Virus record (IMG/VR): IMGVR_UViG_3300029989_000006
Length of the DNA: 64,000 nucleotides
From: a virus
Strand: one strand, 5' to 3'
Within the stretch, counting starts at the first letter, position 1. Every line of letters starts with the position of its first letter. Of this stretch, positions 1 through 64,000 are shown piece by piece. A program made the translations under genes and the position numbers. Under the pieces are notes generated by a model, which saw nothing but the letters and a program-made list of their open reading frames with translations, was not told the origin of the DNA and searched no databases.

Positions 1-64
1 ATGTACCTGACTTGAAATCAGAGGTGCCAGGAATGGTGCGTGGGTTGAACCCCTACTACTTCCT
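1..64 (+). tRNA. tRNA-Ser(TGA), 5' end cut by window
   Basis: Anticodon arm ctga-CTTGAAA-tcag, long variable arm gtgcca..tggtgc, T arm gtggg-TTGAACC-cctac, 3' acceptor strand tacttcc. Confidence 0.8.
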
Positions 65-87
65 CAATTATTTATTAAACTTATAAA

Positions 88-414
88 ATGAAAGATTCAT
101 TTACTATTGAAACCGCTATGTTAGCAAAAGAAAAAGGATATCCACAGATATTTGCAGGATGTACTATTAATGGATATTATTTTAAAAATGCTGATACATA
201 TTTACAAGATACTCAGGCAAGATTATAAAAATGGTTGAGAGATGTGCATAATATTAAAGTTTATCTTTTATGGTATGATGATAAAATAACTAATCCTAGA
301 TGGAGTGTGTATATTCATTATCCTCCAGTTTATAAACACTATTATATTAATGGTATTGAAGATTATGAAGAAGGTTTAGAAATAGGATTACAAACAGCTT
401 TAAAATTAATTTAA
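88..414 (+). pseudogene. phage hypothetical protein with in-frame TAA at 226-228 (paralog of 5832..6251)
   Basis: Reads MKDSFTIETAMLAKEKGY...TQARL*KWLRDVHNI...YEEGLEIGLQTALKLI; same motif order as 5832..6251. Confidence 0.65.
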
Positions 415-416
415 TT

Positions 417-599
417 ATGGGATTTTCAATTATTTTATGTGAAATTTTGTTACTTTGTTCTTTGGGATTATTTTTATCATTTGTAAAAGATACAAGCACT
501 CCCCCAACTCACCAAACTTGGATATTTATATCTATCTTAAAATTTATAGGTATTATTATTATTGCATTTATTTCATTTATATTAGGTCATGTTTTCTAA
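417..599 (+). CDS. small membrane protein (2 TM)
   Basis: Two hydrophobic stretches; operon context. Confidence 0.55.
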   Translation: MGFSIILCEILLLCSLGLFLSFVKDTSTPPTHQTWIFISILKFIGIIIIAFISFILGHVF

Positions 600-861
600 T
601 AAAATTTCAAAAGAAAAAGAGTTATTAATTAGACTAGCAACTGATAAGAATGGAAATATAAAATTTAAATCTAAATTATTATATAATAATCCTTATTTAT
701 ATTCTTCTAATGAGGACTTACGTTATTATTTATGGATGATTGAATTAAGTATTTATATTGGGGATAATTTAGACTGTTCTTCAATTCATTGTTCATTTGA
801 TGTATTAAATATTAACAAATTAGAAAATGAATTATTGTATATAATAAATAAAATTAAATGA
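589..861 (+). CDS. hypothetical protein
   Basis: ORF ends in TGA overlapping next ATG (ATGA). Confidence 0.6.
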   Translation: MFSNKISKEKELLIRLATDKNGNIKFKSKLLYNNPYLYSSNEDLRYYLWMIELSIYIGDNLDCSSIHCSFDVLNINKLENELLYIINKIK

Positions 862-1214
862 TAGAGGCATTTTTATTAATTTGCATTCATTGGATTGCAG
901 ATTTTGTTTGTCAAAATAAGAAATTGGCTACTAGTAAATGGAATAGTTTTGATAAACTGACAGATCATACAGTTATTTATAGTGTGGTATTAGGATTACT
1001 AGTTTTTATAGTTCCTGTATTACAATTTAAAAATATTTCTGCACTGTTTTTATTTATAAGTTTAAACCTAATTCTTCATACTATAATTGATTATTTTACA
1101 AGTAAAATTGTGCATAAGAAATTTGAAAATAAACAATATGGTGCATTTAGAGTTATAGGATTTGATCAGGTATTACATTATGGATGTTTGTTTTTTACCT
1201 ATTCAATTTGTTAG
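858..1214 (+). CDS. DUF3307-like membrane protein
   Basis: HWIADFVCQ, H-x-IIDY and GFDQVLH motifs. Confidence 0.75.
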   Translation: MIEAFLLICIHWIADFVCQNKKLATSKWNSFDKLTDHTVIYSVVLGLLVFIVPVLQFKNISALFLFISLNLILHTIIDYFTSKIVHKKFENKQYGAFRVIGFDQVLHYGCLFFTYSIC

Positions 1215-1222
1215 ATATAAAT

Positions 1223-1294
1223 GATAAGTGGGGTGGTTGTATCACTTTTTGTCTGCAAAACAAAGTAAAAAGAGTTAGATTCTCTTACTTATCT
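1223..1294 (+). tRNA. tRNA-Cys(GCA), atypical
   Basis: Acceptor gataagt/acttatc, anticodon arm tttgt-CTGCAAA-acaaa, T arm aagag-TTAGATT-ctctt, U73. Confidence 0.75.
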
Positions 1295-1322
1295 CAGAGA
1301 TTATTAATTTAAAAATTTAATT

Positions 1323-2081
1323 ATGTTTAAAATTATTTGGCCTTGGAGTAAAACTTCAAAGGAAATGCAAGAGTTTCAAGAGTGGAAAGAAAAAAGATCA
1401 GTTGAAAATAAAAATCCTGAGATGATTGTAATGGATCCTAATGGAGAATTAAGTAAAGATTATCTTTATGATTTTCTAGGATGGGAAGCTAGTTATGGTA
1501 ATTATAACCGATATTCAGAAACTATTTTTGCACCAGGTTCTCCTCAACTAGAAGCTCTTAAAATGAAGATTACAGTTAAACCAATAGATGTTGTAAATCA
1601 ATTGGAAACTGCTCCAACATTTTTTGATTTAGCTTGTATTGAGGAAAAAATTCAACTTGTTCTTTCAAAAAAAGAATTGATTAATAATCAATATTCTAAA
1701 AGAGAAGTTAATGGATTATTAGAATGTCTTGAAAATAGAAAAAAATATACTGAATTTAAAGAATATTTTGAGGGATTTCAAGTCACTACTGATGAAAAAA
1801 TTGGAGAAGTTTTGGATAAACATTTATTAGTCCGCAAAGCTGTTGAAATTTTCATTCCTGATTTCCCTGTTGAAGCTATAAAAACAATGCAAACTTATAC
1901 TGATAAAGTGATGGAAGTTTGTGGTAAAAAACCTATTTTTTATGTTATTGCAGAAGATGATAACTTTAAGAAAGCATATGGAAAAAGAGATCCAATTCTT
2001 TTAGCTCAAAGTCCATTTGGTTTCTATTGGTATATTCTCGGTGCATGGGATAAAGAGATGTTACTTCTTTCTGAATTTTAA
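1323..2081 (+). CDS. conserved phage hypothetical protein
   Basis: 252 aa ORF; C-terminal DPILL...W.ILGAWD motif. Confidence 0.75.
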   Translation: MFKIIWPWSKTSKEMQEFQEWKEKRSVENKNPEMIVMDPNGELSKDYLYDFLGWEASYGNYNRYSETIFAPGSPQLEALKMKITVKPIDVVNQLETAPTFFDLACIEEKIQLVLSKKELINNQYSKREVNGLLECLENRKKYTEFKEYFEGFQVTTDEKIGEVLDKHLLVRKAVEIFIPDFPVEAIKTMQTYTDKVMEVCGKKPIFYVIAEDDNFKKAYGKRDPILLAQSPFGFYWYILGAWDKEMLLLSEF

Positions 2082-2090
2082 GATTTTATT

Positions 2091-2510
2091 ATGAAAATTT
2101 TATTTTGTATTTTACTTTTATTCTGTACAATAACAATGGCAGAAGTAAAAGTTATTAAACTTCCTATAAAAGAGAAATTAAAAAAATCTCTGGTTGTAAC
2201 TGCAACTACTTATACTATAAAAAACCGTAGTACTATTGATTTTTATACGAAAAGTGGTTTTAAAATAACTAAAACAAATCCAAAACTGGATAGAGTTATT
2301 GCTGTTAGTCATGATTTAAAGAAACTCTTTAATTATGGTGATTCAGTGTTGATTCAAGGTATTGGAAAACATAGTGGTGTTTATTATATAAGAGATTTAA
2401 TGGATTCAAAATGGAAAAATAGGATTGATATTCTATTAAATCCTAATGATTTATTAATAACTTATTACAAAGTAAAAATTATTTTAATGAATAAAAAAGA
2501 GGTACAATAA
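2091..2510 (+). CDS. 3D-domain (MltA/RlpA-like double-psi beta-barrel) protein with signal peptide
   Basis: N-terminal hydrophobic segment; VTATTY, IAVSHD, Y..RD, RIDI motifs. Confidence 0.75.
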   Translation: MKILFCILLLFCTITMAEVKVIKLPIKEKLKKSLVVTATTYTIKNRSTIDFYTKSGFKITKTNPKLDRVIAVSHDLKKLFNYGDSVLIQGIGKHSGVYYIRDLMDSKWKNRIDILLNPNDLLITYYKVKIILMNKKEVQ

Positions 2511-2525
2511 GTACCTCTTACAAAT

Positions 2526-2597
2526 TCTCCTATGGCAAACAGGTGTAGGCAACGCCCTTTTAAGGCGTGGGGCAAGGATCGTTACCTTGTAGGAGAA
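2526..2597 (+). tRNA. tRNA-Lys(TTT)
   Basis: Acceptor tctccta/taggaga, anticodon arm acgcc-CTTTTAA-ggcgt, T arm caagg-ATCGTTA-ccttg. Confidence 0.9.
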
Positions 2598-2611
2598 CAA
2601 ATATTTAAACT

Positions 2612-3028
2612 ATGAAGAAAGCAATTTTTAAGCTAAACGGAGGACAAGGTGCATTACTCTGTTCTCAATGTCATGTTATCATTACAACAGGAAGATATTT
2701 TACAGATAAACAATGGTTAGCAGCGAAAGGAGAAATTAAATTACCTCCACAATTCTGTGATAGATGTACAAGTAACCATTTATATAAGAAATTAGAAGAT
2801 AAAGTTTATAAATATCCTACTAAAAGTAAATATGGTTTTCATAATGATGAATTAGAAACTCTTTTAAAAGATTATCCTGATATTAATATGGATAAATTTA
2901 ATGAAGCCATGATGGGTAATACCTGTATGATAGATGAAGGAGGAGTAATTATGTATCATTGTGATATATTTGTCGCTTTAAAATGTGGAATAGAAAACAG
3001 AGAATTAACTATTGAAGAATGGGACTAA
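2612..3028 (+). CDS. hypothetical protein with N-terminal CxxC..CxxC zinc-binding domain
   Basis: CSQC...FCDRC; domain paralogous to 51000..51182. Confidence 0.7.
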   Translation: MKKAIFKLNGGQGALLCSQCHVIITTGRYFTDKQWLAAKGEIKLPPQFCDRCTSNHLYKKLEDKVYKYPTKSKYGFHNDELETLLKDYPDINMDKFNEAMMGNTCMIDEGGVIMYHCDIFVALKCGIENRELTIEEWD

Positions 3029-3128
3029 TTATGGAAGAGAAAAAATGTGCAAGTTGTAGAATGATACACTTATTTATAGTGTGTCCATTTTGTGGATCAA
3101 TTGTATCTATTCCTATGGAAGATTGAAA

Positions 3129-3488
3129 ATGAAAATTTTAAAATTTGAATGGGATAATGCTATTGGCTGTGAATGGAATGGTAAAAGTGTTTTAATAGGC
3201 CAATATTTACCAAATAGGGAAAATAATGAAATCTCACATATAGAGATTTATGGTTTTGCTTTAAGTATAGCAGATATAAATAAAGATTTTCAATTACATG
3301 AATATTCTTGTTTTGGTGGTAATATTTGCGGTGAAGTATCTGAGATTTCAAAAGAAGATGCAAGAAAATTATTGTATGAAGAAATTGATAAATCTTTAAA
3401 TATTTTATTTGATCAAGGTGAAATGAATATGATTAATCAAAAACTTAACGTCGCAGAATCAGTTTATGAAGATAACGATGAAGATTGA
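3129..3488 (+). CDS. hypothetical protein
   Basis: ORF; ATG at 3129 preferred; TGA stop. Confidence 0.6.
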   Translation: MKILKFEWDNAIGCEWNGKSVLIGQYLPNRENNEISHIEIYGFALSIADINKDFQLHEYSCFGGNICGEVSEISKEDARKLLYEEIDKSLNILFDQGEMNMINQKLNVAESVYEDNDED

Positions 3489-3690
3489 AAACTATTAATA
3501 ACTTAAAATGGATTCGAGTGCCATTGCGAAAATGTCCCTACCGTAAGTAAACACTGATGTCGACAATTAACAGAAGTTTAACTCGGAGGAAATCTATAAC
3601 ATATAAGGATTAGAAATCTAATATGAAAGAAGAAAGTACAGAACATAAGACTTTAATGGGGATTATGTACGGGAGAGTTATTAATAGTTT
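3489..3690 (+). ncRNA. candidate structured ncRNA closed by a 15-bp perfect stem
   Basis: aaactattaataact (3489-3503) is the exact reverse complement of agttattaatagttt (3676-3690); non-coding interior with hairpins. Confidence 0.5.
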
Positions 3691-3698
3691 AAATTAAT

Positions 3699-3776
3699 AG
3701 GAATGTATTCCCTCTGCCTGATAAGCAGTAGAAAGGATAATTTGGTTACATATGGGTTCAAGTCCCATCTTTCCTA
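3699..3776 (+). ncRNA. rearranged tRNA-like RNA, GAT (Ile) anticodon loop, no D arm in normal position
   Basis: Acceptor aggaatg/ctttcct, ctgc-CTGATAA-gcag, T arm atggg-TTCAAGT-cccat. Confidence 0.6.
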
Positions 3777-3941
3777 CACTCGTGTTGCCCTACCTCGGGC
3801 ACGTATAAAATAATAGATTCTAATAAGCAACCTAGTTGAGGCTTCGTGAACGTTTTGATAATATTCACCAGCACGTACTGGAAAAAAATTATCCACATAT
3901 CCTATTATAGGCCTTAGTAAAACTATAATGAGGATATACAT

Positions 3942-4012
3942 GGAGATAGCCTGGTGGCACGCCCTGATAGGGTTTTACTAGTTGTTTGAGGTTCAACTCC
4001 TCTTTATCTCCC
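3942..4012 (+). ncRNA. aberrant tRNA-like RNA (GAT-containing loop)
   Basis: Perfect acceptor ggagata/tatctcc, T arm gagg-TTCAACT-cctc, gccc-tgata-gggt hairpin. Confidence 0.5.
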
Positions 4013-4032
4013 AAATATTAATAAAATTTAAA

Positions 4033-4302
4033 ATGAGTAAACATTTAATTTATGATTTAATGGAAGCATGTTCTGGAGTTAATGAACTTCGACATGCAAT
4101 AGTAGTAATGAAAGAACTTGGTATCACTTATCAACATCGAACACCTCAAACAATGGGAGAATGTTGGTGGTTTTGGAATTGTGAAAATTTACCAGAAAAA
4201 TTACCAAGTTATTTAACACCACTTGATCTTGACCCAATGGAATGTATTGGATATGGATTAAGTCAAGAAGATGCAGAAAAGATACGTGATTATAAATATT
4301 AA
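4033..4302 (+). CDS. hypothetical protein
   Basis: ORF; ATG at 4033 after A-rich leader. Confidence 0.65.
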   Translation: MSKHLIYDLMEACSGVNELRHAIVVMKELGITYQHRTPQTMGECWWFWNCENLPEKLPSYLTPLDLDPMECIGYGLSQEDAEKIRDYKY

Positions 4303-4376
4303 ATCTCATGATGGCAGGACGTGTATAGCTGGCAATTGTCCAAGTTAGAACCTTCGGGTACTATGCGTGGGATTTA
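4300..4376 (+). ncRNA. candidate small structured RNA
   Basis: Closing stem taaatctcatg/cgtgggattta with G-U pairs; inner ggac/gtcc stem; C(UUCG)G tetraloop hairpin. Confidence 0.5.
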
Positions 4377-4382
4377 TTTAAT

Positions 4383-4457
4383 GCATAAGTGCTCGAGTGA
4401 TCCAAGAGGACGGTCTCCAAAACCGTAAAACCGTGAGTTTGAATCTTACCTTATGTG
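4383..4457 (+). tRNA. tRNA-Trp(CCA)
   Basis: Acceptor gcataag/cttatgt, anticodon arm acggt-CTCCAAA-accgt, G73. Confidence 0.9.
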
Positions 4458-4482
4458 CAATTATTTATTAAAAAATTATGTT

Positions 4483-4899
4483 ATGAGTTATCAAAAATTT
4501 GAAACTGTTGAAAGTAAAATTAATGAAGTTATTTCTACTTTATATGGAGATGAATTTCAAGTTCCTGAATTGCAGGATTCATTAAAAGCTGTTGGATGTC
4601 CTTATGCTTTAGTCATACCACCAATTTTGAAAAAAGCGGGAGTCATAAAAATGGATGGTGTAACTAAACTTTCCAGATTTGTAGTTGAAAGAATTAATTA
4701 TTCTGTCATAAAAGATTTATTTGAAGAAGCAATTCAAGTTTATCAGCATAAGTCTAAAAATATAAATCCATCTGTATATGAAGAAAAGATTATACAAGGA
4801 GAAAGAACTGCAGATGAAGATAGAGCTATAAAACTATTAAAATCTTTAGGTTATATTATTCAAAAAAAGATTATCACTGAATCAATTATAGAAATATAG
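4483..4899 (+). CDS. hypothetical protein
   Basis: ORF; ATG at 4483. Confidence 0.65.
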   Translation: MSYQKFETVESKINEVISTLYGDEFQVPELQDSLKAVGCPYALVIPPILKKAGVIKMDGVTKLSRFVVERINYSVIKDLFEEAIQVYQHKSKNINPSVYEEKIIQGERTADEDRAIKLLKSLGYIIQKKIITESIIEI

Positions 4900-4905
4900 T
4901 TTTAA

Positions 4906-4980
4906 GGGTCCTTAGCTTAGTTTGGTTAAAGCAAATCCCTCATAAGGATGAGAGCCACAGTTCAAGTCTGTGAGGGCCCA
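4906..4980 (+). tRNA. tRNA with CAT anticodon (Ile2-like or elongator Met)
   Basis: Acceptor gggtcct/agggccc, atcc-CTCATAA-ggat, canonical D and T loops; GGG start resembles Ile2. Confidence 0.88.
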
Positions 4981-5258
4981 CTAATTTTTAAAATAATTAA
5001 TAAAATGGAAAGACTTCAAAAAATTCAAAAAATTGTTATTCAGATGATGTATCTTTTGGATTAGATGTAATAGTTAAAGTTTCTTTTGTTATACCAAAAG
5101 GATACACTTCAATGACTCCAGATGAACTTATTAAGGACTGGTTCCAAAGACATCATTTAACATTAGAAGGATATAGCCATGCTTTTAGAGATGGATCAAT
5201 GGTTGGGAACTCTGAAGAAATTATTGATGTAACAATTATTAATAAAGAATAAAAAATT

Positions 5259-5373
5259 AACTAATTTACAAATAGTATAAATCTGAATTATTATGTAGGT
5301 GAAACACCTTCCTGAGTGCAAGGATAAAAATAATAAAGATAATCATAATTATCTAAGATATTGTAAATTAGTT
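5259..5373 (+). ncRNA. candidate structured RNA closed by a 13-bp stem
   Basis: aactaatttacaa/ttgtaaattagtt; inner aggtg-aaa-cacct and tcct/agga hairpins. Confidence 0.45.
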
Positions 5374-5380
5374 TTAAAAT

Positions 5381-5454
5381 GGGGTCGTAGCTCAGTTGAT
5401 TAGAGTATCACACTTGCAATGTGAATGTCAAGGGTTTGAGTCCCTTCTTCTCCA
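5381..5454 (+). tRNA. tRNA-Ala(TGC)
   Basis: G3:U70, tcaca-CTTGCAA-tgtga, T arm aaggg-TTTGAGT-ccctt, A73. Confidence 0.88.
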
Positions 5455-5473
5455 CAAACTAATAATAAATCAC

Positions 5474-5620
5474 ATGGAAAAAGTAATGATTGCAATAGTT
5501 CTATTATGTGGATTACTCTATATAATAGGAAAAGTTAAAGAGTGCAGTGATAATCCAGAATATGAAGCATGGATTACGCAGGACAAAGCAAAATACCCAG
5601 AATTATATAAAAAGAAATAA
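5474..5620 (+). CDS. small membrane protein
   Basis: ATG 5474; N-terminal hydrophobic helix; TAATG coupling. Confidence 0.55.
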   Translation: MEKVMIAIVLLCGLLYIIGKVKECSDNPEYEAWITQDKAKYPELYKKK

Positions 5621-5835
5621 TGGATGAAATAAAATTAGAAGATTATTGGACAAAGAAGTTTCCTAATGGACATTTGCCTTCTTATGCTAAAGAAATGATG
5701 CTTGAATTTGCATCAGATATTCTTCAATTAGCTACTGAAAATGCCTCAATAAAAACTGAAGTATGTATGGGAGTTGTAATAGATCATAATATTGACAGAG
5801 ATTCTATTCTTAACACAATAAATCAAATAGAATGA
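5620..5835 (+). CDS. hypothetical protein
   Basis: Coupled ORF, ATGA overlap. Confidence 0.6.
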   Translation: MDEIKLEDYWTKKFPNGHLPSYAKEMMLEFASDILQLATENASIKTEVCMGVVIDHNIDRDSILNTINQIE

Positions 5836-6251
5836 AAAATTTATTTGTACCATATGAATTAGCTTTAAAGCTAAAAGAGAAAGGATTTAATGAACCTTGT
5901 TTTGCTGTATATGTGAGACATAAATTACTTATGATTGGTCAACCAAATGATCTTCAAATTTATACTACTGAAGATTTTGAAGATGATATAAAAAGTGAAG
6001 ATATTATTGCTCCTCTTTATCAACAAGTAACAGATTGGTTTAGAGAGGAACATAATATACATATTCATATATCAAGAATGTATTGCTATGTAGGAGATAA
6101 GCCAAGAACCTTCGATGGTTGGTGCGTCTATATTGATAATGGGGTTGAAGATTCTGATTTAGAATGTAATTCCATATTCATTAAAATGTTCTATCCTACT
6201 TATTATGAAGCTTTAATAAAGGCTATTGAAGAAGCATTAAAACTTATTTAA
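5832..6251 (+). CDS. phage hypothetical protein
   Basis: LALKLKEKGF...APLYQQVTDWFRE motifs; paralog at 88..414. Confidence 0.7.
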   Translation: MKNLFVPYELALKLKEKGFNEPCFAVYVRHKLLMIGQPNDLQIYTTEDFEDDIKSEDIIAPLYQQVTDWFREEHNIHIHISRMYCYVGDKPRTFDGWCVYIDNGVEDSDLECNSIFIKMFYPTYYEALIKAIEEALKLI

Positions 6252-6601
6252 TGAAAAAAGGAGTATCACGAATAGTTTTTAAAATAGGAAAATTTGCAAT
6301 AAAAATTCCTAATCATTCATTTAATCACGAACATTTTCTACTTGGATGTTGGGCAAATTGTTCAGAAAGAAACTGGTATAAATGTACTAATAAAATAGCT
6401 GAATATAAAGATAAGATGGCACCTTCTCTATTTTGTTCATGGTTTGGTTTAATTCAAATTCAATATTGGTGTAATCCTATTGATAGAGATTTAACAGATG
6501 AAGAACTTAAATATTTTGATAATATTAGAAATGGAGAACAAAAATCTGAAAACTTTGGATATTATAATAATAGAATGGTTTGTTTAGATTATGCACAATA
6601 G
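6251..6601 (+). CDS. kinase-like fold protein (possible)
   Basis: G.SRIVF..AIKIP start and NFG...LDY end resemble minimal protein-kinase-like motifs. Confidence 0.45.
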   Translation: MKKGVSRIVFKIGKFAIKIPNHSFNHEHFLLGCWANCSERNWYKCTNKIAEYKDKMAPSLFCSWFGLIQIQYWCNPIDRDLTDEELKYFDNIRNGEQKSENFGYYNNRMVCLDYAQ

Positions 6602-6797
6602 ATATAATTAATATTTGATTTATATTAATGGAAAAATTATTATGAAAAAATGGATTATTAAATTATTTAATAAATTTATTATATTGATCAATACTGACTC
6701 ATATGATGATGGAACAGGTTGGGGATGAAGAAAGAACTTAATTTCTATTTCTATATTCTTTTTGGCAGATGTCAATTAATGTTGGATTATTGTTTAA

Positions 6798-7202
6798 ATG
6801 AAAATTATTATGGAAGAATTAGAAAAGAAAGTTGAAGAAGCTGCTAAAAAGTATATAAAAGACTATTATAGTGAGCAAATAATGCCTAAGTGTGTAAAAG
6901 ATGCTTTTATTAATGGCGCTAAATCTCCTGAAGCTAAAGAATATTGGCAACAAGAAAAAAAACTTAAGAATATTATCTTCTCTGATGATATTGATACAAT
7001 TGGTAAATGTGCTAAGTGTGGAGTTGAATTTCATATACATAAATTAGAACAACAAGGAATGTATACTGAAGAAGATTTAAGAGATGCTTTTAATACAGCA
7101 CAAAAACAAGCATCTGCAAGTACAGATCAATGTGGAAATGTAGAAGTAAATCATACAGAAACATTTGAAGAATGGTTTGAACAAAATAAAAAGAAATCAT
7201 GA
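6798..7202 (+). CDS. hypothetical protein
   Basis: ORF with inserted CxxC; TGA stop in ATGA overlap. Confidence 0.6.
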   Translation: MKIIMEELEKKVEEAAKKYIKDYYSEQIMPKCVKDAFINGAKSPEAKEYWQQEKKLKNIIFSDDIDTIGKCAKCGVEFHIHKLEQQGMYTEEDLRDAFNTAQKQASASTDQCGNVEVNHTETFEEWFEQNKKKS

Positions 7203-7481
7203 AGACTAAAAAAATTGCTAAAGAATTAACGAGTCAAGAACTTATAGAAAGAATTTATAATTATACAGTTCAGATTGAAAAGCTCCAAACTATGCGACTT
7301 ATTTTTACAAAGGAAATAATTAAACGAAAGAAAAGAAAAATTAAATTATGAAAATAAATTTTAAAACAATGAGACTTGATATCCAAAGGTTAAAAGATGC
7401 TATGGGCAGTGAATATACTTGTGAAAGATGTTTAGGAAACAGATGTCATCCAGAGACTTGTAATTGTTGGTGTCATAATTA

Positions 7482-7555
7482 GGAGATATAGCTCAATTGT
7501 ATAGAGTTCTAAATTACGAATTTAGAAGTTGCAGGTTAGAATCCTGCTATCTTCA
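7482..7555 (+). tRNA. tRNA-Arg(ACG)
   Basis: Acceptor ggagata/tatcttc, ctaaa-TTACGAA-tttag, T arm gcagg-TTAGAAT-cctgc. Confidence 0.88.
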
Positions 7556-7573
7556 CTAAAAATAAAAAAAATT

Positions 7574-7747
7574 ATGAGAACATTATTTAATTATTTCAGA
7601 CAGGTATTTTGTAAACATGAATTTGAAGTAGAAATTGTAGAATCAACCGAAAGAGATATATATTCAGGTGCTAGTAAACAAGGAGAAAAACGTTCTCTAT
7701 ATTGTCCTAAATGTGGATATCATTCTTGGCATTGGAAGAGTTTTTAA
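7574..7747 (+). CDS. small zinc-ribbon protein
   Basis: FCKH...CPKCG. Confidence 0.6.
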   Translation: MRTLFNYFRQVFCKHEFEVEIVESTERDIYSGASKQGEKRSLYCPKCGYHSWHWKSF

Positions 7748-7748
7748 T

Positions 7749-8030
7749 ATGGCAATGTTTGGAAGCTCTTGGTCAGAGGGCACTGAAGGAGAAGAAATAG
7801 GACCATTTAGTCATTGGTTAGAAGATTCAATTGAAGATGATGGGCCTATGGTACCTTCATCTTGGAAAGAAGAAGTTCCTACGAATGCATTTGACTTATG
7901 TATGGAATTAAAAAGAAAAACAGGTATGGGATTATTAAGTGCCAAACGTTGTTTACAAGATAATACTTGGGATATTGATAAAGCAAATGAAAACCATCAC
8001 ACTTATATGTGGGATGGTAAATTGAAATAA
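7749..8030 (+). CDS. protein with EF-Ts N-terminal (UBA-like) domain
   Basis: ELKRKTGMGLLSAKRCL...DIDKA resembles the EF-Ts N-terminal helices. Confidence 0.6.
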   Translation: MAMFGSSWSEGTEGEEIGPFSHWLEDSIEDDGPMVPSSWKEEVPTNAFDLCMELKRKTGMGLLSAKRCLQDNTWDIDKANENHHTYMWDGKLK

Positions 8031-8164
8031 ATATTCATCACATGGATACCGCATGGTTGAGTCAAATTTGAACTCTTCACCTCTTCGGCCGGTTAAACGA
8101 TTAGGTATGAATATAAATAGTTTTAAGGCATCTGAATTCTATTCAAAAATAATGGTGCCACCAC

Positions 8165-8251
8165 GTCTCGGTTGCCTTAGTTGGTCGAAAGGTCTAGGCT
8201 GTTAACCTAGTGAGTTTTACTCCACCGTGGGTTCGAATCCCACCCCTGACT
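8165..8251 (+). tRNA. tRNA-Asn(GTT) with long variable arm
   Basis: ctagg-CTGTTAA-cctag, variable hairpin gagt/actc, T arm gtggg-TTCGAAT-cccac. Confidence 0.82.
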
Positions 8252-8253
8252 CT

Positions 8254-8345
8254 AAACAAGTAAGTTCTATAAGACAGATCTCGTGTACACGACATAAATT
8301 AGAACAGAAACTAATCTGTCAAGGCTACAAGCAAAGTACTTGTTT
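8254..8345 (+). ncRNA. candidate structured RNA between tRNA-Asn and tRNA-His
   Basis: Nested stems aaacaagta/tacttgttt and gacagat/atctgtc; palindrome tcgtgtacacga. Confidence 0.4.
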
Positions 8346-8351
8346 TTAAAT

Positions 8352-8436
8352 GGTAATTGTAGCCGGTAATGGTCTCCGAACAGATTGTGGTTCTGTAATG
8401 CGAAAGCTAATGCGGGTTCGAGTCCCGTCTTTTACC
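8352..8436 (+). tRNA. tRNA-His(GTG) with long variable region
   Basis: G-1:C73, acaga-TTGTGGT-tctgt, gc-GAAA-gc variable hairpin, T arm gcggg-TTCGAGT-cccgt. Confidence 0.85.
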
Positions 8437-8451
8437 CTAAATTTTAAATAA

Positions 8452-8898
8452 ATGATAAATATTTGTAAAATTAGAAAATTTCCTGACTGGCATTATTTTG
8501 TTTATTATTTATCTAAACAAGATAGAGGAAAATGGTTAAATGTTTGGTTTCAAGAAGAAGATTGTTTATATAAAGGAAAAAAATATTCTCCTAATAATTA
8601 TTGTACCTTAAAAGAAGTTGATAAAGAATCTATGTTTCATTTATATGGAAGAAGGTTTAATCCAGTTTCTATCTTTATTATTAATTCTTATAAAAAAGAA
8701 AATCCTTTTTCTATGAAAGTTATGATACATTCAGTAGATGATAGTTCTTATGGTATATGGTTTGATTTTCCATTAGAAGGATTAGAATGTAGAAGATTGT
8801 TAATAATGAAATGGATTTCAGAGAGAAGTATAATAAATGGAGAAAAACTCCTTGATTATTGTGAATCTTTGGGAGGAGAAGACAGAGATTATAATTAA
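8452..8898 (+). CDS. hypothetical protein
   Basis: 148 aa ORF. Confidence 0.65.
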   Translation: MINICKIRKFPDWHYFVYYLSKQDRGKWLNVWFQEEDCLYKGKKYSPNNYCTLKEVDKESMFHLYGRRFNPVSIFIINSYKKENPFSMKVMIHSVDDSSYGIWFDFPLEGLECRRLLIMKWISERSIINGEKLLDYCESLGGEDRDYN

Positions 8899-8900
8899 TT

Positions 8901-9128
8901 ATGGCAAAGGATAAAGAATTTGAAAAAAAATATAAAGCTGAGCGAATTATGAGAAAAACAGTTCGGAAGGCTAAGAGACAATTAAGGAATAATGGGATGT
9001 GCAAATGTGGTATTAACCACAAAACAGATTGGCACTCTTGTCCTTATGATGAGGATATGAATGGCAATTATGAAAAAAATTGTAGATGCTGTTCTGATTG
9101 CACACACAATTGTGCAATGGATATTTAA
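8901..9128 (+). CDS. Cys-rich small protein
   Basis: CKCG..HSCPY..CRCCSDC..NC. Confidence 0.65.
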   Translation: MAKDKEFEKKYKAERIMRKTVRKAKRQLRNNGMCKCGINHKTDWHSCPYDEDMNGNYEKNCRCCSDCTHNCAMDI

Positions 9129-9131
9129 GAT

Positions 9132-9187
9132 TGCGAGGTAGCTCAGTGGTAGAGCGATTGTCGGGCGTTCGATTCGTTCCCTCGCTA
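9132..9187 (+). ncRNA. tRNA-like RNA lacking the whole anticodon arm
   Basis: tgcgagg-TA-gctc-AGTGGTA-gagc-gattgtc-gggcg-TTCGATT-cgttc-cctcgct-A. Confidence 0.75.
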
Positions 9188-9200
9188 CAAATTTAAAAAA

Positions 9201-9575
9201 ATGAAAAGTATTATAAAAGAAATTTTAAGAATAGAAAAACAATTATCTGATACTTCTTTAAAATTAAGTAATAATAATTTTCTTTTAAAAGCTTCAAAAG
9301 ATGCAGTTGAAAAAGAGAAACAGAAACAGTCAGATTTTAAAGCAAGTTTAATATTATTAACTGGACAATGGGATAATCAATATAAGATTTTATTAAACTA
9401 TTTTAAGACCAGGGAAAGAATAAGTTGGCATATTCAATATTTGAGAGAATGTATCACTGAATTGGAGCTTTATGAATCAGATTGGTTTGATTATGTTTAT
9501 AAAGAAAATATTGAATTAGAAGAATTAGAGCAATTATATAAAAAAATTAATGGGACAATTACAAAACAGAATTGA
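9201..9575 (+). CDS. hypothetical coiled-coil protein
   Basis: 124 aa ORF. Confidence 0.6.
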   Translation: MKSIIKEILRIEKQLSDTSLKLSNNNFLLKASKDAVEKEKQKQSDFKASLILLTGQWDNQYKILLNYFKTRERISWHIQYLRECITELELYESDWFDYVYKENIELEELEQLYKKINGTITKQN

Positions 9576-9933
9576 AAAGGATTTGCATAATTCTATTTTA
9601 AATAGAAATGATGCTAAAAAAGATATTTTAAGAGTTATTTACTCTGATATGAATAAAATTGGAAGAGATGTTACTGATGAACAAGTTATTAAAATTATCA
9701 AGAAACAGATTGAAGATTCTAGAGCTTGTCATACAGAAGAAGAAATTCCTTTAATAGAGGTTTATCTTCCAGCCGAAATGTCAGATGTTGAGATGAAGAT
9801 GAACTTAACAATTATGTTATCTGAACAATGTATTTCTAAAACTGATATACCTAATGCAATGAAGGCTGCAAAGACTTTTTTAGGTTCTGATTTTGATGGA
9901 AAAAGAGTTTCAGCAATTTTAAAAACATTATAA
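9550..9933 (+). CDS. GatB/YqeY domain protein
   Basis: Helical YqeY pattern: DEQVIKIIKKQI, YLPAEMS, DGKRVS. Confidence 0.8.
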   Translation: MGQLQNRIEKDLHNSILNRNDAKKDILRVIYSDMNKIGRDVTDEQVIKIIKKQIEDSRACHTEEEIPLIEVYLPAEMSDVEMKMNLTIMLSEQCISKTDIPNAMKAAKTFLGSDFDGKRVSAILKTL

Positions 9934-10100
9934 TGAAATGGGGATATAAAGTTATTATTGAAGACATGTCTATTTATCAATTAATTGAAATATTAAATAT
10001 AAATGGAAAACTTGGCTGGGAATTAGTTAATAATGTAGTAACTGATTCCTCAATGTTTAGTAAAACTTATGTATTAATTTTCAAGAAAGTTCTTTAAAAC

Positions 10101-10245
10101 ATTAATATTATACCTATATGTATGCAACTGATGGGTGAAGACATTGCAGTAGATGGATTACGGATATCCTGCGACTCTGTTTAGCAACAGAGGATAATTG
10201 TGAGTAACTTATTCCGCCATCGTCTAATAAAACAATAATATTAAT
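10101..10245 (+). ncRNA. candidate multibranched ncRNA
   Basis: Closing attaatatta/taatattaat; inner stems tgcaa/ttgca, gatgg/ccatc, ctctgtt/aacagag. Confidence 0.5.
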
Positions 10246-10283
10246 TAAAAACTTATCAGCGTATACACTGGTAAGTTTAATAT

Positions 10284-10359
10284 AGTCTCAGGGCCTGCTA
10301 GGGTGGGCGATAGCTTGTCACGCTATTCAATCAGGAGGGTTCGAATCCCTTTGGGACTG
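10284..10359 (+). tRNA. tRNA-Asp(GTC)
   Basis: Acceptor agtctca/tgggact, atagc-TTGTCAC-gctat, TTCGAAT, G73. Confidence 0.88.
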
Positions 10360-10376
10360 CAAAAAGATAATAAAAT

Positions 10377-10450
10377 GCTCTCATGGTGTAACTGCATAAC
10401 ATAACTCACTTCTAATGAATTGACTGGGGGTTGGAATCCCTCTGGGGGTA
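10377..10450 (+). tRNA. tRNA-Arg(TCT)
   Basis: Acceptor gctctca/tgggggt, tca-CTTCTAA-tga, T arm ggggg-TTGGAAT-ccctc. Confidence 0.82.
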
Positions 10451-10636
10451 CTAAATTAAAAATATGAAACAAAAAATTGAAAAACTTTTAGAATCATTAA
10501 TACCTTTAGGTATTGGTTTAATTTCTAGTAGTTTATGGTGGACACATAATGATAATTGGAAGACTTATTTACCAATTGTATTATTACTAATGGCAATACA
10601 AAGATTATTTGATAAATATAATAAATATAATAAATA

Positions 10637-10929: not shown

Positions 10930-11005
10930 CGAGATGTTGGGGAGTCCGGTACCCCGCTTGCTTTGGGAGCAAGAGAACTCGCAGGTTCGAATCCTGCCAT
11001 CCCGA
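10930..11005 (+). tRNA. tRNA-Pro(TGG)
   Basis: C1:G72, cttgc-TTTGGGA-gcaag, gcagg-TTCGAAT-cctgc. Confidence 0.9.
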
Positions 11006-11009
11006 CGTG

Positions 11010-52694: not shown

Positions 52695-52734
52695 AAATAC
52701 CCACAGTACAATCGTACTGTGGGTATTTTTTTTT
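52695..52734. terminator. terminator between convergent gene blocks (probably bidirectional)
   Basis: 15-bp perfect stem aaatacccacagtac-AATC-gtactgtgggtattt, T tract on +. Confidence 0.88.
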
Positions 52735-55700
52735 ATTCTGATGGATGCATAAACTCAAACATCTTAAGATCTTTATTCATTAATTGTTCAAATGTTTTAT
52801 TTCCTCATAATACACTGTGTACATCTGTTGCAGTTTTAGTTCCTCAAGCTCAAAAAACTGGCTCAGTTTTTAAAGCTCCTAAAGTATTATTTCATAAATT
52901 TCCTTCACTTAATACTTTTTTATTTACGGATGCCATAAACTCTACTGTTCTTCCATCAATTCCATCAGTACCATTTTCTGCAATTCAGCCATCATAAATA
53001 GCCTTCATCATACCAAACAGTAAAACCATTAATAATGAATCTACCATTGCAAAACCTACTCTCTCATTTCTATGATCTTTATTTTTTGCAATTTCTCCTC
53101 AGTTTCCTTTTATAACATCTTGCATTAGATATCCTACAGAGTATAATAACCCTTCTTGTGGATGTCCTACTCATGCTAACATTGGATCTCCAGTATTTTC
53201 AGTAGTTGCTTTAAATCCAATAATTTCATCAGGATTTGTTTGACTATAAACAGGTTCTCTTCATAATAATTGACCTGTTTCCTCATCAGTTACTTGTTGA
53301 TGACTTCCCATCATACTTTTATCTGCAGAAACTGGTTTACCAAATCACATATTCATCTTACCTGGCCAGAATTGAAGTAATTGTAATCAGATTATTCCAT
53401 ACCAAGTATTATGTCACTCGGCTTGACTATCTTTATCATAATATCCATAAACTGTATCAGTAAAAGATTTAAATCCAGTTCTTTCTTTTTCAGAATAAGC
53501 TTGATCTAATAAATCAGTTGCTTCATCAAGAATTGGATTGTTTCCTTTAGCTAATTCTGTATTTCTTTCACCTAAAATTATTGTATAAAGATTTCTTTGT
53601 TCATTATATTTTAGATTATTCTTTGCAGGAATATATTGTCCATCAGCATTTTTATATTTTTCTCTATTTTGGAAATAATATTCAAATCGCTTATCTTGAG
53701 TTGGATCATAGTGTATATAACCTTTATCGTCTAAAGTATGTGCATAAAAACTTCCATCATGAATCATTTTTGCAATGAATAGAGATAATCTATTATAATA
53801 ATCAGGAATAGTATTACAAGCATACATCCATTTACTTAATCCTAACATAGCACCTCTTCTATTTGTCTGCATTTTTCTCGGTAAAGAATTAACATCCATA
53901 TTTGCAAATCCATAATAAAGATTTATTCCATCCATTAAATTTCATTTTTTAGACATTTTATTATCAACTGCTAACATAATCTTCATTGCTTCTGCTAAAT
54001 CTTTAATATTAAATGGTTTTTTTCCACCATAAATATTAAGGGCAGCCAATCCTACATTTTTATACAATCCAAATGTTAATTCCTTTGCCATTAAAGCAGG
54101 ACGAAATCCTAACATTGCAGCAGTTGCAATGGTTTTCCCTGATCGAACTAATCTAATTGCATCACTTGCCTCTGGATCAATAATAGGTTCATCAAATAAT
54201 CCTAATTTTATTCTATTAGTAATGTATTCTAATTGTTTAGATATGTTTTCTTTATTTTTTCCTGCAAGTAATTTCATTCATCAAACATATGATGTAATAT
54301 TTGGAAGAATTGCGTCAACATTTGCTTTTCTTATACTACTGAAAGCAACTCTATGAGCTATTGTATCTAAATCCAATTCATAATATCCTGGGGAATTTTC
54401 ATTAATTAGTCTAACTTTCATTTCATCTGATTGCATAGAATAAATATCATACATTTCATTGAAACCTAATTGTGTTTCTTTAATTCTATTTAAATCATTT
54501 TCTGAAAATTCTCTTGGATCTAAATAGTCCTTAGTTTCATCAAGTCATTTAGATACATCTTGTCATAATCCTGCTAATCCACTTTTTAAAATTCTATCAT
54601 TTCTATTAATTTGTTGAGAACGCATTATTGGCATTTTGAAATAATCTCCAGAAATAATACTCTTTATAATTATACCAGAAGTATCAGTTTTAGTAATAGA
54701 TTCTATACTTGTTAAATCAATTTTACCTCATAATTTTTCTGGAATATGTAGTCTATATTTTTTAATTTCAAATAACATTTGCTTAGAATATTCTTGTTCA
54801 GCCTGTGTTAGAGTCTTATCAGAATATGGATCTTTTAATGACCAACTATTAGAAACTTCACTGCCATCATGTTCTCACATATTTTTATTAAGAGATCTAA
54901 CATTACCAATTCAATTTTGTGAAAGATTTGAGTAGTTTATTTTTTTAAAAAATTCATATGTAAATGCAGCTATTGTAGTAGATTGTTTATACATTTTATG
55001 TCTAATACTAGAATTTGCTCCTGTAATCATTTTATTAATATTCTGTAAATCTACAGAACCTATACGATCAGGAGTATTAGTTTTCAAACCACCAATAATT
55101 CCTAAAATTCTTCTACCAGTTTTATCATAATCTGCTTGTTCATCTGAATAAAAAGCTGCTAATAAACTTTTAAAATCAGAGAAACCAATAGCAAAATTTC
55201 TCATTTGCATAAAATCTCCCTCTGGGACATCTCCTGATTTAGCAACAATTAATGAAGATAGAATTGCAAAAACATATTCAAGTCTGTTCTTAAAATCAAT
55301 TTCAGAACCAAAAGTTTTTTTCTTTAATTCTGGAAAAGCATCAGCAAGTTCTCTATGAATTTGTTTCAATTTATACAATTCCATTCCTTGATAATCTTCA
55401 CCATATTTTAAAACAATTTTTTCAACTGATGTAGACTCTAAATTAAGAACTGCCTCTTGCATTTCTGTAACAGCTCTATCTGTAAGATTAAGAAAATTAG
55501 ATAAATTTATTTTTGGAGTTATTCCTTTTGAAGTTAATAAATCAAAATATTGTTTTTGTATTTTATTTACATCAAAATATCTTGCCTGAGATCCCTCAAC
55601 ATTTAATGGTATTAAATTCTTAATTTTATTGAAATCTAAATCTAATTCATCATAATAATGATGAAAAAATAATAACATTTTTAAATATTCAACCTCAGCA

Positions 55701-57334
55701 AATGTTGTGTTTTTATCATATTTTGCATCACCATTTAATACAGTCAAACTAAATAAAACTAATTTATTACTTCTTTTACTTTTTAATAAGATAAATCCTA
55801 AAGAATCAAGTGCCATATTATTTTCAACAACTTTATAATCACCATTTAAATACGGAGATAGTAAGGCATTAACATGAAGGGTTTGGTGGTCATTAGCCAT
55901 CTTAAGAGGTAAATCCGATTTATTTAGAATTGCCTCAGAAATTTTATCCTTTAATTGCGTAACTCTGTAATAGTTATTTTCCGATAATTTCTTAGTATAT
56001 GCGTAAACTCTTTCTTTAAATTTTACCAGTTTTTCAGCATCTGATAAACCTGGTGCCCTAAATCTAAAATTTTCATCTTTAATTAAACCAAGTTCAAAAT
56101 CATCAATTTTACTAATAAATTCTAATTTATTATTTTTTATTGCATCTGCAATTATTTTTTCTGGATCATTTTCATCCTTAGATGTTTTGATCTTATATAA
56201 TGGGAATAAAAAAGCTAAATCTGCTAAAAATCTATCATTCTTTTTAGTATCATATTCTATATTAAACTTTTCAGGAATAATTAACTGAGCAGTTCTTGTT
56301 ATAGTACCAGTAGATTGTAAACCAGTATTTGCAGCAGATAATGATACAATTTTTCCTGCGCTAAAATTAATTGGATTAAATTTATTTAAAGTTGAACGTT
56401 CTCCAATACTGATTGGAATAACATTTATAGAAATAATATTTTTAGCATTAATATGTTGTGCTAATAACTGTCTTTGAAGTGCTAATTCTCAATCTGTTGT
56501 TAATTTCTTTGTTGAATCCCAGTCTGGATAATCACGTTTTGATAATTTTAATTCAAAAATATGAACATTTCCATCCTCATCAACTACAACAAAATCTAAT
56601 TTTCCTTTTAAACCAATGGCTCCACCATCTATAGTATCTAATATAACATTAGTTAATATAGTTCCTTTACTATTTAGAGTTGAATAAATTTTATATAATA
56701 CATCTTTAATTTTATCTTTTCAATCCTGACTTTCTCCACCTAAATGCCATTTATTCTTTTCAATTAAATCATCAATATTCTGTTCAACACTAATATTAAA
56801 TTCACCTTGAGAAAATTTAAGACTACTTAAAATTGAATGTAATCCAATTCCAAAATCTCTTAATCCTTTTTCTATTTCAATAACATCTTGAATATCCTTT
56901 GTATATTGTATGATTTTATTACTTATATCTGGATTATCAGCATATTGAGAAATTAGTTCTTTTAAACTTCAATCAATATGTGGATTAACTCCATCAGAAA
57001 TTAATTTCCTTTTAACTTCTGATAGTATTCTATTTTCTTCAATATATTCAGGAGCTAATCTTTGTTTAGAAATTCCTAAAGTTCCTAAAAACTCTTCCTG
57101 TCTAGTAGTAATAAATTGTGAAATATCCATTTTACTTGGATCCATTGATATAGTTTTTCCTCTTGGAAATTGATCTTTAATTTTATCTACTATACTATTT
57201 ACAATTTCATCAGAACTAAAAATTTTTGTATTTTTTAGTTCTGATGTATTTTTATAATAATATTCAGTTAATCCTGTTAAAGTTACAGGATGTTTAAAAT
57301 TATCCTTTAATAAGTAAGTACAATTTATTGACAT
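52733..57334 (-). CDS. giant virion cargo protein with PD-(D/E)xK nuclease-like domain and C-terminal hydrophobic helix (TGA=Trp), about 1533 aa
   Basis: Fragments 56969-57334, 54911-55900, 53942-54277, 53414-53935 share one frame and each ends at TGA; TAA at 52733-52735; motifs GIGLH and GKLDFVVVDEDGNVHIFELK. Confidence 0.82.
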
Positions 57335-60300: not shown

Positions 60301-60855
60301 ATAAAAGTTATTTAAAATAATAAATAATGCATTATCTGTTTGTGCTTCTATAGTTGTATCACTAAAACTGTTTAAATAATCCTCTAATTTATTTAATTCA
60401 TCTATTGGAGCAGTAGTATTTAATACTCCAGTAATGTTTAGATTATTAAAATAAGTATCAATTTTATTTTCTGAAGCAAGATTTAATAATTCCTGAAAAT
60501 TAATCTTCTGATATTTAGTTCCATTAATTTTTTTATAATCAAAGGCAATATCATAATTAAGATTCTTTCATATTGCATTTTGTAATGAATTATTAGTTAC
60601 CTTCTTACTAATAAGTTCATTTAATTTAGTAATAACCTCGGAATCTTTAGTGTTTCTAATTATGTTATTTATTTCATTTACTGTTAAACCTGTATGTAAT
60701 GAATTTAAATAGGCAAGCAAATTACTAGTACCTTCTTCTTTAGAAGTTGGGAGTAATTCTAGAAATTTTTGATCCTGTAAAGATATTTGGTTTACAGTGG
60801 AGGGGATTCTTAGTTCCCCCCCATTTGGTAATTTTACATAAAAATAGCACTTCAT
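57325..60855 (-). CDS. giant virion cargo protein with zincin-like HExxH motif (TGA=Trp), about 1176 aa
   Basis: Five ORF fragments in one frame, each ending at TGA; ATG in TAATG overlap; IIHEYLH near C-terminus; TAA at 57325. Confidence 0.82.
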
Positions 60856-63800: not shown

Positions 63801-64000
63801 AGATCCTTGAATTCAAATCTGTCATATTGATACATAGGCATCATTTGATTCTGTACTAAAATATCCAATATTCTTCATCTCCATTGCAGATTGTAAAGAT
63901 TGTGCTGGAATTCTAGAAACAATAAACTGATGTGATTTCTGCCATGAAGCATAAACTCTTTCTGATAAAGTATCTAATACTCCCTCTTTGTTATTAATAA
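60855..64000 (-). CDS. virion RNA polymerase catalytic subunit (crAss-like), C-terminal part; TGA=Trp; starts outside window
   Basis: RIPAQ and QGSDFDIDK catalytic motif at about 63783-63809, in frame with all downstream fragments to TAA at 60855. Confidence 0.9.

Follow-up and report, generated by a model that had tools for sequence, protein, structure and literature searches.

The pair between G19 and C56, which joins the D-loop and T-loop at the corner of transfer RNA (tRNA), is a textbook contact and is taught as virtually invariant. A phage genome, IMG/VR virus record IMGVR_UViG_3300029989_000006, encodes an array of tRNAs, in some of which other letters occupy these two positions, which raises the question of whether such tRNAs are working molecules and how the pair came to change. 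The stretch analyzed here (the window) comprises 64 kilobases, bases 102614 to 166613 of the record, and an initial annotation made from its letters alone had reported five tRNAs with alternative 19:56 pairs plus a truncated tRNA-Ser with G56. We examined the pair in the whole genome, in related phages and in cellular and viral sequence collections and found that the phage is a real, unusually dense and multi-type case of a known, widespread 19:56 exchange.

Genome-wide, ARAGORN called 26 tRNAs, 11 of them in the window, and Rfam added three more (Ser-UGA, which is cut by the start of the window, Phe-GAA and a Leu-UAG with a long arm), giving 29 in total. Positions 19 and 56 hold G-C in 21 of these, A-U in four (Val, Gly, Trp, Ala), U-A in two (Cys, Arg-ACG) and C-G in two (Arg-UCU, Ser-UGA). 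There is no mismatch, so that the full complementarity claimed for the window extends to 29/29 tRNAs. The window variants, all on the plus strand, are tRNA-Cys(GCA) at 1223 to 1295 (U19 at 1240, A56 at 1277; called by ARAGORN only), tRNA-Trp(CCA) at 4383 to 4458 (A19 at 4400, read in tgA, and U56 at 4440, read in ttT; called by both programs), tRNA-Ala(UGC) at 5381 to 5455 (A19 at 5399, U56 at 5437), tRNA-Arg(ACG) at 7482 to 7556 (U19 at 7500, A56 at 7538) and tRNA-Arg(UCU) at 10377 to 10451 (C19 at 10395, G56 at 10433). Two further variants, Val-UAC and Gly-UCC, both A19-U56, are located upstream of the window. The 3' part of tRNA-Ser(UGA) occupies positions 1 to 64 on the plus strand, with G56 at position 47. 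The whole gene, at about genome bases 102594 to 102677, has the D-loop AGUGCUA and the T-loop UUGAACC, and the C19 that had been predicted for it is present upstream of the window and pairs with G56. Every position given by the initial annotation for the five pairs and for the Ser G56 proved exact on re-reading.

The bases in question truly stand at 19 and 56, as had been claimed. The Rfam tRNA model places the variants at G18-N19 and U54-U55-N56, and N56 is the third base of the seven-nucleotide T-loop in the ARAGORN assignments, with which the model agrees. G18, U54, U55 and A58 are retained in all eight variants, whose T-loops read U54-U55-N-R-A58; an elbow defined by G19 plus C56 is lacking in 8/29 tRNAs, and one defined by G18, U54, U55 and A58 is present in all eight. 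When the letters at 56 are shuffled over the 29 tRNAs, full complementarity is expected by chance once in 1.8e9 arrangements [29!/(21!4!2!2!)]. Pair statistics were taken from a clean alignment (A3) that comprises 18 tRNAs of the phage and its relatives, beside a second count anchored on the T-loop. Positions 19:56 were 100% paired in A3 (GC 8, AU 7, CG 2, UA 1), with 10 two-sided and no one-sided changes, and the 22 structure pairs including 19:56 were 94% paired; taken together, they surpassed each of the 500 shuffles and every slid control. Two other alignments were dropped, one made with MAFFT from 21 tRNAs (A2), in which short D-loops stood one column out of register, and a model-based one of 95 matches (A4) with the same slip; their apparent mismatches are register artefacts and really represent GG plus C56. 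The eight swaps are genuine compensatory changes at 19:56.

Furthermore, the variants resemble intact tRNAs. Against a gathering threshold of 29 bits for RF00005, the Rfam scores were 63.3 for Arg-ACG (the highest in the window), 60.6 for Val, 57.2 for Ala, 49.1 for Trp, 44.4 for Ser, 43.1 for Arg-UCU and 42.3 for Gly, a range (42 to 63 bits) that overlaps that of the canonical tRNAs of the phage (30 to 69 bits). The expectation that scanners would score these genes as pseudo-tRNAs was thus wrong for seven of the eight, and only Cys was missed by Rfam. All eight have a seven-base anticodon loop of the form Y32-U33-NNN-R37. Identity elements are also present, namely G3:U70 in Ala and the discriminator U73 in Cys. 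One or two acceptor-stem mismatches occur in each of Ala and Val. The tRNA-Cys is atypical, with G8, G14 and U21, and was recovered neither by Rfam nor by our own model (R1). ARAGORN calls it with a shorter D stem than a hand fold, in which all four stems are paired with one G-U in the D stem. Near-identical copies of the phage are found in several ENA and Joint Genome Institute metagenome assemblies, and the variant tRNA genes are letter-identical across five independent assemblies of the phage.

Related phages show the pair in motion, although the collections contain few of them. Protein searches started from the tRNA array yielded no relatives in IMG/VR and three short contigs in metagenomes; nine informative contigs were obtained, L002 through the polymerase and the others by exact-protein retrieval with YqeY homologues. 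ARAGORN called 62 tRNAs on these contigs, of which 48 have G-C, 10 A-U and two C-G at 19:56, and two are ambiguous. Arg-ACG, U-A in the phage, is A-U in five relatives (L016, L017, L018, L034 and L035), and Arg-UCU, C-G in the phage, is likewise C-G in L032, A-U in L016 and L034 and G-C in L002. Trp (A-U in the phage), Cys (U-A) and Ser-UGA (C-G) have G-C in the relatives. The reverse is seen for Thr-UGU, which is G-C in the phage and A-U in L002 and L008, and Ser-GCU, which was not found in the phage, is G-C in L008 and C-G in L017. The orthologues thus record at least eight independent two-sided switches, and none of them is in a clearly one-sided state. Because of this pattern, we regard the orthologue comparison as strong evidence that selection keeps the pairing of 19:56 rather than its letters; the proposal in the initial annotation that the pair is under selection gains support from these complementary, non-random changes.

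Two tRNA-Gln(UUG) genes (L014:6560-6633 and L032:6167-6239) are the sole cases in the lineage that might break the 19:56 rule. Their D-loop GG is interrupted (AACGUGUA and AAUGUGUG) and C56 is present; they have either a U at position 18 or a base inserted between G18 and G19. BLAST searches against the collected cellular and viral tRNAs gave no close match for the Arg, Gly, Ala, Trp, Cys and Ser variants. The tRNA-Val matches Val tRNAs of other phages at 86 to 88%, and those are also A19-U56. Recent capture from a host was rejected, since Val alone has a close match and that match is to phages.

The record itself comprises 172,188 base pairs with 28.9% guanine plus cytosine (G+C) and a CheckV completeness of 100%. 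Its DNA polymerase A shares 34 to 37% identity with those of the crAss-like phages cr108_1, IAS virus and crAss001. With TGA taken as sense, the maximum length of open frames rises from 851 to 2,906 codons, large minus-strand genes at window positions 52733 to 63884 contain 6 to 22 in-frame TGA codons each, and a suppressor tRNA with the anticodon UCA is encoded at genome positions c60008-60081. TGA is accordingly sense in part of the genome, and the lengthened frames, the tRNA(UCA) and the polymerase similarity together mark the virus as a TGA-recoded crAss-like phage.

To place the swaps in a wider context, GTDB species representatives (cellular) and IMG/VR (viral) were scanned for a common D-arm with a base other than G at 19 followed by G53-U54-U55-N56-R57-A58, position 56 being left free. 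Among the GTDB matches listed, 84/84 parsable tRNAs are complementary at 19:56; 62 of them are tRNA-Arg(ACG) with A19-U56, overwhelmingly from Bacteroidota, and the remainder comprises other Arg isoacceptors, Gly and Ala of Saccharibacteria and a few others. The IMG/VR scan returned 111 complementary tRNAs out of 112 (77 A-U, 19 U-A, 15 C-G and one A.C), mostly Arg. The share of tRNA-Arg, 75/84 among the cellular matches listed and about 83% of the viral ones, is partly due to the scan pattern, which favoured an Arg-type D-arm. Complete tRNA sets were tabulated for two Bacteroidota genomes. A Parabacteroides sp. has 3/43 tRNAs without G-C (Gly-UCC, Arg-CCG and Arg-ACG) and Gelidibacter gilvus has 2/35 (Arg-UCG and Arg-ACG), all A-U; swaps in Ala, Trp, Val, Cys or Ser-UGA were not seen in either genome. 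Among 61 Bacteroidota genomes sampled for tRNA-Arg(ACG), 41 have G19 and about seven have A19, never both, so that the A19-U56 form occurs in about one in seven sampled genomes. The initial annotation had held that the same variants in host tRNAs would speak against its reading. Such variants do exist in Bacteroidota for Arg and Gly-UCC with A-U, which weakens that reading in part; for Ala, Trp, Val, Cys and Ser-UGA none appeared in the two genomes.

Other phages carry single swaps, in Ile-GAU of T5 and in Cys of the gut crAss-like phage cr111_1, and bases other than C occupy position 56 in 4.3% of 828 other tRNAs on IMG/VR loci. Taken together, the sequences compared here indicate that the 19:56 swap is a low-frequency yet general feature of tRNA evolution and not specific to phages. 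A literature search for natural 19:56 variants found no relevant paper in the collection searched. Since the A19-U56 tRNA-Ile of T5 has long been present in databases, we describe the present phage as a dense case, with several pair types, of a phenomenon that is known though little discussed.

Comparison with these systems shows what is particular to the phage. Relative to the canonical elongator elbow of bacteria and phages (G18-Psi55, G19-C56, T54-A58), the phage tRNAs share the cloverleaf, the seven-nucleotide T-loop and a Watson-Crick 19:56 pair, but eight of the 29 use the letters A-U, U-A or C-G instead. The tRNA-Ile1(GAU) of T5 (gene T5t02; D-loop AGCGAUCUA, T-loop UUUAAAU) likewise has A19-U56, yet it is the single swap among the approximately 23 tRNAs parsed for T5, compared with eight swaps of three pair types here. 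Bacteroidota tRNA-Arg (ACG, CCG and UCG) and tRNA-Gly(UCC) also have A19-U56, in a D-arm context common with the phage; the D-arm of Arg-ACG in the relatives, GCUC-AACUGAAUA-GAGC, is shared with these A19-U56 tRNAs. The Bacteroidota swaps, however, are chromosomal, number two to three per genome and represent a minority state, and the Arg-ACG of this phage has since moved to U-A. Animal mitochondrial tRNAs have eroded D-loop/T-loop contacts, and the interaction is often lost altogether. They depart from G19-C56 under mutation pressure, whereas the phage always keeps the pair.

We consider it probable that the variants function as phage tRNAs and that other Watson-Crick pairs have taken the place of G19-C56 through neutral or nearly neutral compensation. 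The selected trait would then be the Watson-Crick geometry of 19:56 rather than the identity of its letters. The pair closes the elbow with a flat face toward the solvent, and its distal face serves as a flat stacking platform on which proteins, RNAs and the ribosome recognize the elbow (PMC4810234). Users of the elbow such as RNase P, the L1 stalk and L5, and T-box leaders would for the most part stack against it or touch it without reading its bases. A yeast suppressor tRNA loses its function when G19 or C56 alone is changed (PMC4117946). Since host tRNAs partly duplicate the accessory tRNAs of the phage, a mismatched intermediate may be tolerated until a second change becomes fixed. The high density would most likely reflect accessory tRNAs that evolve fast under weak constraint, and no dedicated function of the new letters would be required. 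Host enzymes presumably handle swapped elbows already, because Parabacteroides and Gelidibacter carry A19-U56 natively. TruB and Pus4 need the GUUCNANNC consensus, C56 included (PMC13492117). A likely side effect of U56, A56 or G56 would be to remove the T-loop from this consensus for TruB-type pseudouridine-55 synthases, and loss of TruB-type pseudouridylation in the tRNAs without C56 is plausible.

Several points weigh against neutral compensation. The density of swaps is 8/29 (28%) in the phage compared with 4 to 7% elsewhere, and it differs both from the 5/78 of the two Bacteroidota genomes (Fisher P = 0.006) and from the 2/49 of T5 and cr111_1 together (P = 0.004), so that drift alone does not obviously account for it. 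Six of the eight variants are non-Arg, and all three alternative pairs are represented. Nor does base composition help; across the 828 phage tRNAs, non-C56 amounts to 4.9%, 4.7% and 3.5% by G+C tertile, without a trend (P = 0.26). AT pressure was rejected as the main cause because of this missing trend and because U-A and C-G swaps leave G+C unchanged relative to A-U and G-C, respectively. Bacteroidota is the likely host phylum, judged solely from the crAss-like polymerase similarity.

An adaptive origin of the swaps is favoured by their density, which is four to seven times background. C56 may have been changed, with N19 following, to remove the U54-U55-C56 motif recognized by a host T-loop or elbow nuclease, or a phage factor may discriminate between phage and host tRNAs. 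The prokaryotic Schlafen CbCash is a defence nuclease of this kind; it cuts the T-loop 5' of U55 and targets UUC, with a UC motif following its cut sites (PMC13462974). Because a nuclease of this kind has been published, escape is conceivable. There is also a precedent in phage tRNAs that evade anticodon nucleases through loop mutations (PMC10264068). Those tRNAs are likewise phage encoded and depart from a conserved loop sequence; they differ in the loop concerned and in that evasion was tested experimentally there, while it is proposed from sequence here. UUC is missing from the T-loops of 10/29 tRNAs, namely the eight with an altered 19:56 pair together with Lys and Phe (both A54), a C55 occurs in Arg-ACG of the relative L016, and both the transversion swaps and the repeated switching in Arg-UCU fit selection by a nuclease. 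However, 19/29 tRNAs retain UUC, and identical swaps are native to tRNA-Arg and tRNA-Gly of Bacteroidota and would for this reason not separate phage from host tRNAs of these species. Among the approximately 48 phage proteins scanned, neither Schlafen-type, HEPN-type and RNA-repair genes nor other genes for tRNA repair or tRNA nucleases were found; an RNA-ligase-like gene of the relative L017 has no counterpart in this phage. On balance, we consider escape possible but unlikely. The broader version, an adaptive disguise, appears distinctly improbable to us; here, the third of the tRNAs that lost C56 or U54 would be poor substrates for Schlafen/Cash-type UUC nucleases or for marking by TruB/TrmA, and the YqeY-like protein and a protein resembling the tRNA-binding arm of valyl-tRNA synthetase (ValRS), both encoded in the array, would aid the altered elbows.

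Another functional explanation, unrelated to defence, is that the 19:56 letters tune recognition by synthetases or modification enzymes in particular isoacceptors, for instance by arginyl-tRNA synthetase (ArgRS) or through avoidance of TruB/TrmA. ArgRS reads A20, the neighbour of position 19, and tRNA-Arg dominates the swaps in the collections. The dependence of TruB and Pus4 on GUUCNANNC with its C56 (PMC13492117) points in the same direction. Nevertheless, the Arg excess owes something to the scan pattern, as noted above, the majority of the variants in the phage itself (6/8) do not belong to Arg, and the orthologues move freely among the three pair types, which is unexpected of an identity element; we therefore judge tuning to be very unlikely. 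That the variants are decaying tRNA pseudogenes is hardly credible, since 19:56 complementarity is perfect, seven of eight Rfam scores are high, the genes are kept across assemblies and relatives, and cloverleaves and identity elements are intact save for the stem mismatches in Ala and Val, which, with the unusual G8 and G14 of tRNA-Cys and its absence from the hits of Rfam and our own model, are the features suggestive of decay.

The phage and the scans provide evidence from natural covariation for a tertiary contact that is normally too conserved to vary. Exchange of G19-C56 for A-U, U-A or C-G, with near-perfect covariation, is seen in phages, Bacteroidota and other bacteria, chiefly in tRNA-Arg, and tRNA models and annotation should not penalize 19:56 swaps. 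With the variants as natural substrates, one can also ask if it is the letters or only the shape of the elbow that matters to T-loop nucleases, TruB/TrmA, RNase P and the ribosome. Should the swaps turn out to protect the tRNAs, the counter-defence known from phage tRNAs would no longer be confined to the anticodon loop but would include the elbow.

The remaining window tRNAs, again on the plus strand, keep G19-C56. They are tRNA-Lys(UUU) at 2526 to 2598, a tRNA(CAU) at 4906 to 4981, tRNA-Asn(GUU) at 8165 to 8252, which has an enlarged variable region, tRNA-His(GUG) at 8353 to 8437, tRNA-Asp(GUC) at 10284 to 10360 and tRNA-Pro(UGG) at 10930 to 11006. Upstream of the window, tRNA-Leu(UAG) (genome 93668-93781; 114 nucleotides) stands out by the exceptional length of its variable arm, about 40 nucleotides; it scores 53 bits with Rfam and was missed by ARAGORN. 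A tRNA with a six-base anticodon loop, likewise upstream (genome 72917-72988; Rfam, 52 bits), labelled '?(Ser|Leu)(ga)' by ARAGORN, adjoins a tRNA-His of very similar sequence.

Two other elbow contacts vary as well. Changes at position 54 were found in tRNA-Lys (window 2526-2598), in tRNA-Phe (genome 87694-87766) and in relatives, in Asn (L016:1196-1268) and in Asn and His (L034:2215-2363). The T-loops AUCGUUA, AUCGUAC and GUCGUAG differ at both 54 and 58. AUCGUUA, the T-loop of Lys, has 54:58 swapped to A54/U58, and A54 with U58 also occurs in Asn of L016; in the Phe T-loop AUCAAAA, A54 alone is changed. One tRNA(CAU) of Gelidibacter has the T-loop AUCGUGC. From these loops, 54:58 looks like a second co-varying elbow contact in the lineage. 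The contact between D-loop and T-loop at 18:55 co-varies in many unrelated phage tRNAs in IMG/VR, as 19:56 does here; the D-loop AGUAGUA (A18) is combined with the T-loops UGCGAAU or UGCAAUU (G55) in loci L164, L186, L187, L207, L223, L236, L245 and others. No 18:55 swap occurs among the tRNAs of this phage.

The array also contains two overlapping small genes on the plus strand. The first (9201 to 9575) encodes a protein of 124 amino acids that matches the tRNA-binding coiled-coil arm of ValRS (PF10458, E = 3e-8) and has no match among solved structures. The second (9550 to 9933) encodes the YqeY/GatB-tail-like protein of 127 amino acids (PF09424, E = 2e-10), whose profile matches the solved YqeY structure 8xje (E = 5e-16). 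Both the ValRS arm and the YqeY/GatB-tail domain touch tRNA at its elbow or D-loop in the parent enzymes. L016, L017 and L018 have the same gene pair; apparent ValRS-arm homologues upstream of YqeY in L034, L035 and L016 (at 2058) belong to a different family. T5 has a comparable small 'tRNA amidotransferase' gene adjoining its tRNA-Arg.

Just upstream of these two genes, in both the window and L016, lies a 56-nucleotide tRNA-like RNA (window 9132-9187, plus strand; Rfam, 38.7 bits) with an acceptor stem, a canonical D-arm containing GG and a T-arm with UUCGAUU, and without an anticodon arm. It is conserved in relatives (L016:1981-2036 and L008:10460-10515) and may serve as a signal for processing or as a decoy that binds protein. 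In another tRNA-like element (window 3699-3776, plus strand; Rfam, 32 bits), just four nucleotides stand where the D-arm would be; the variable region is long, CUGAUAA resembles an anticodon loop, and the T-loop UUCAAGU is canonical.

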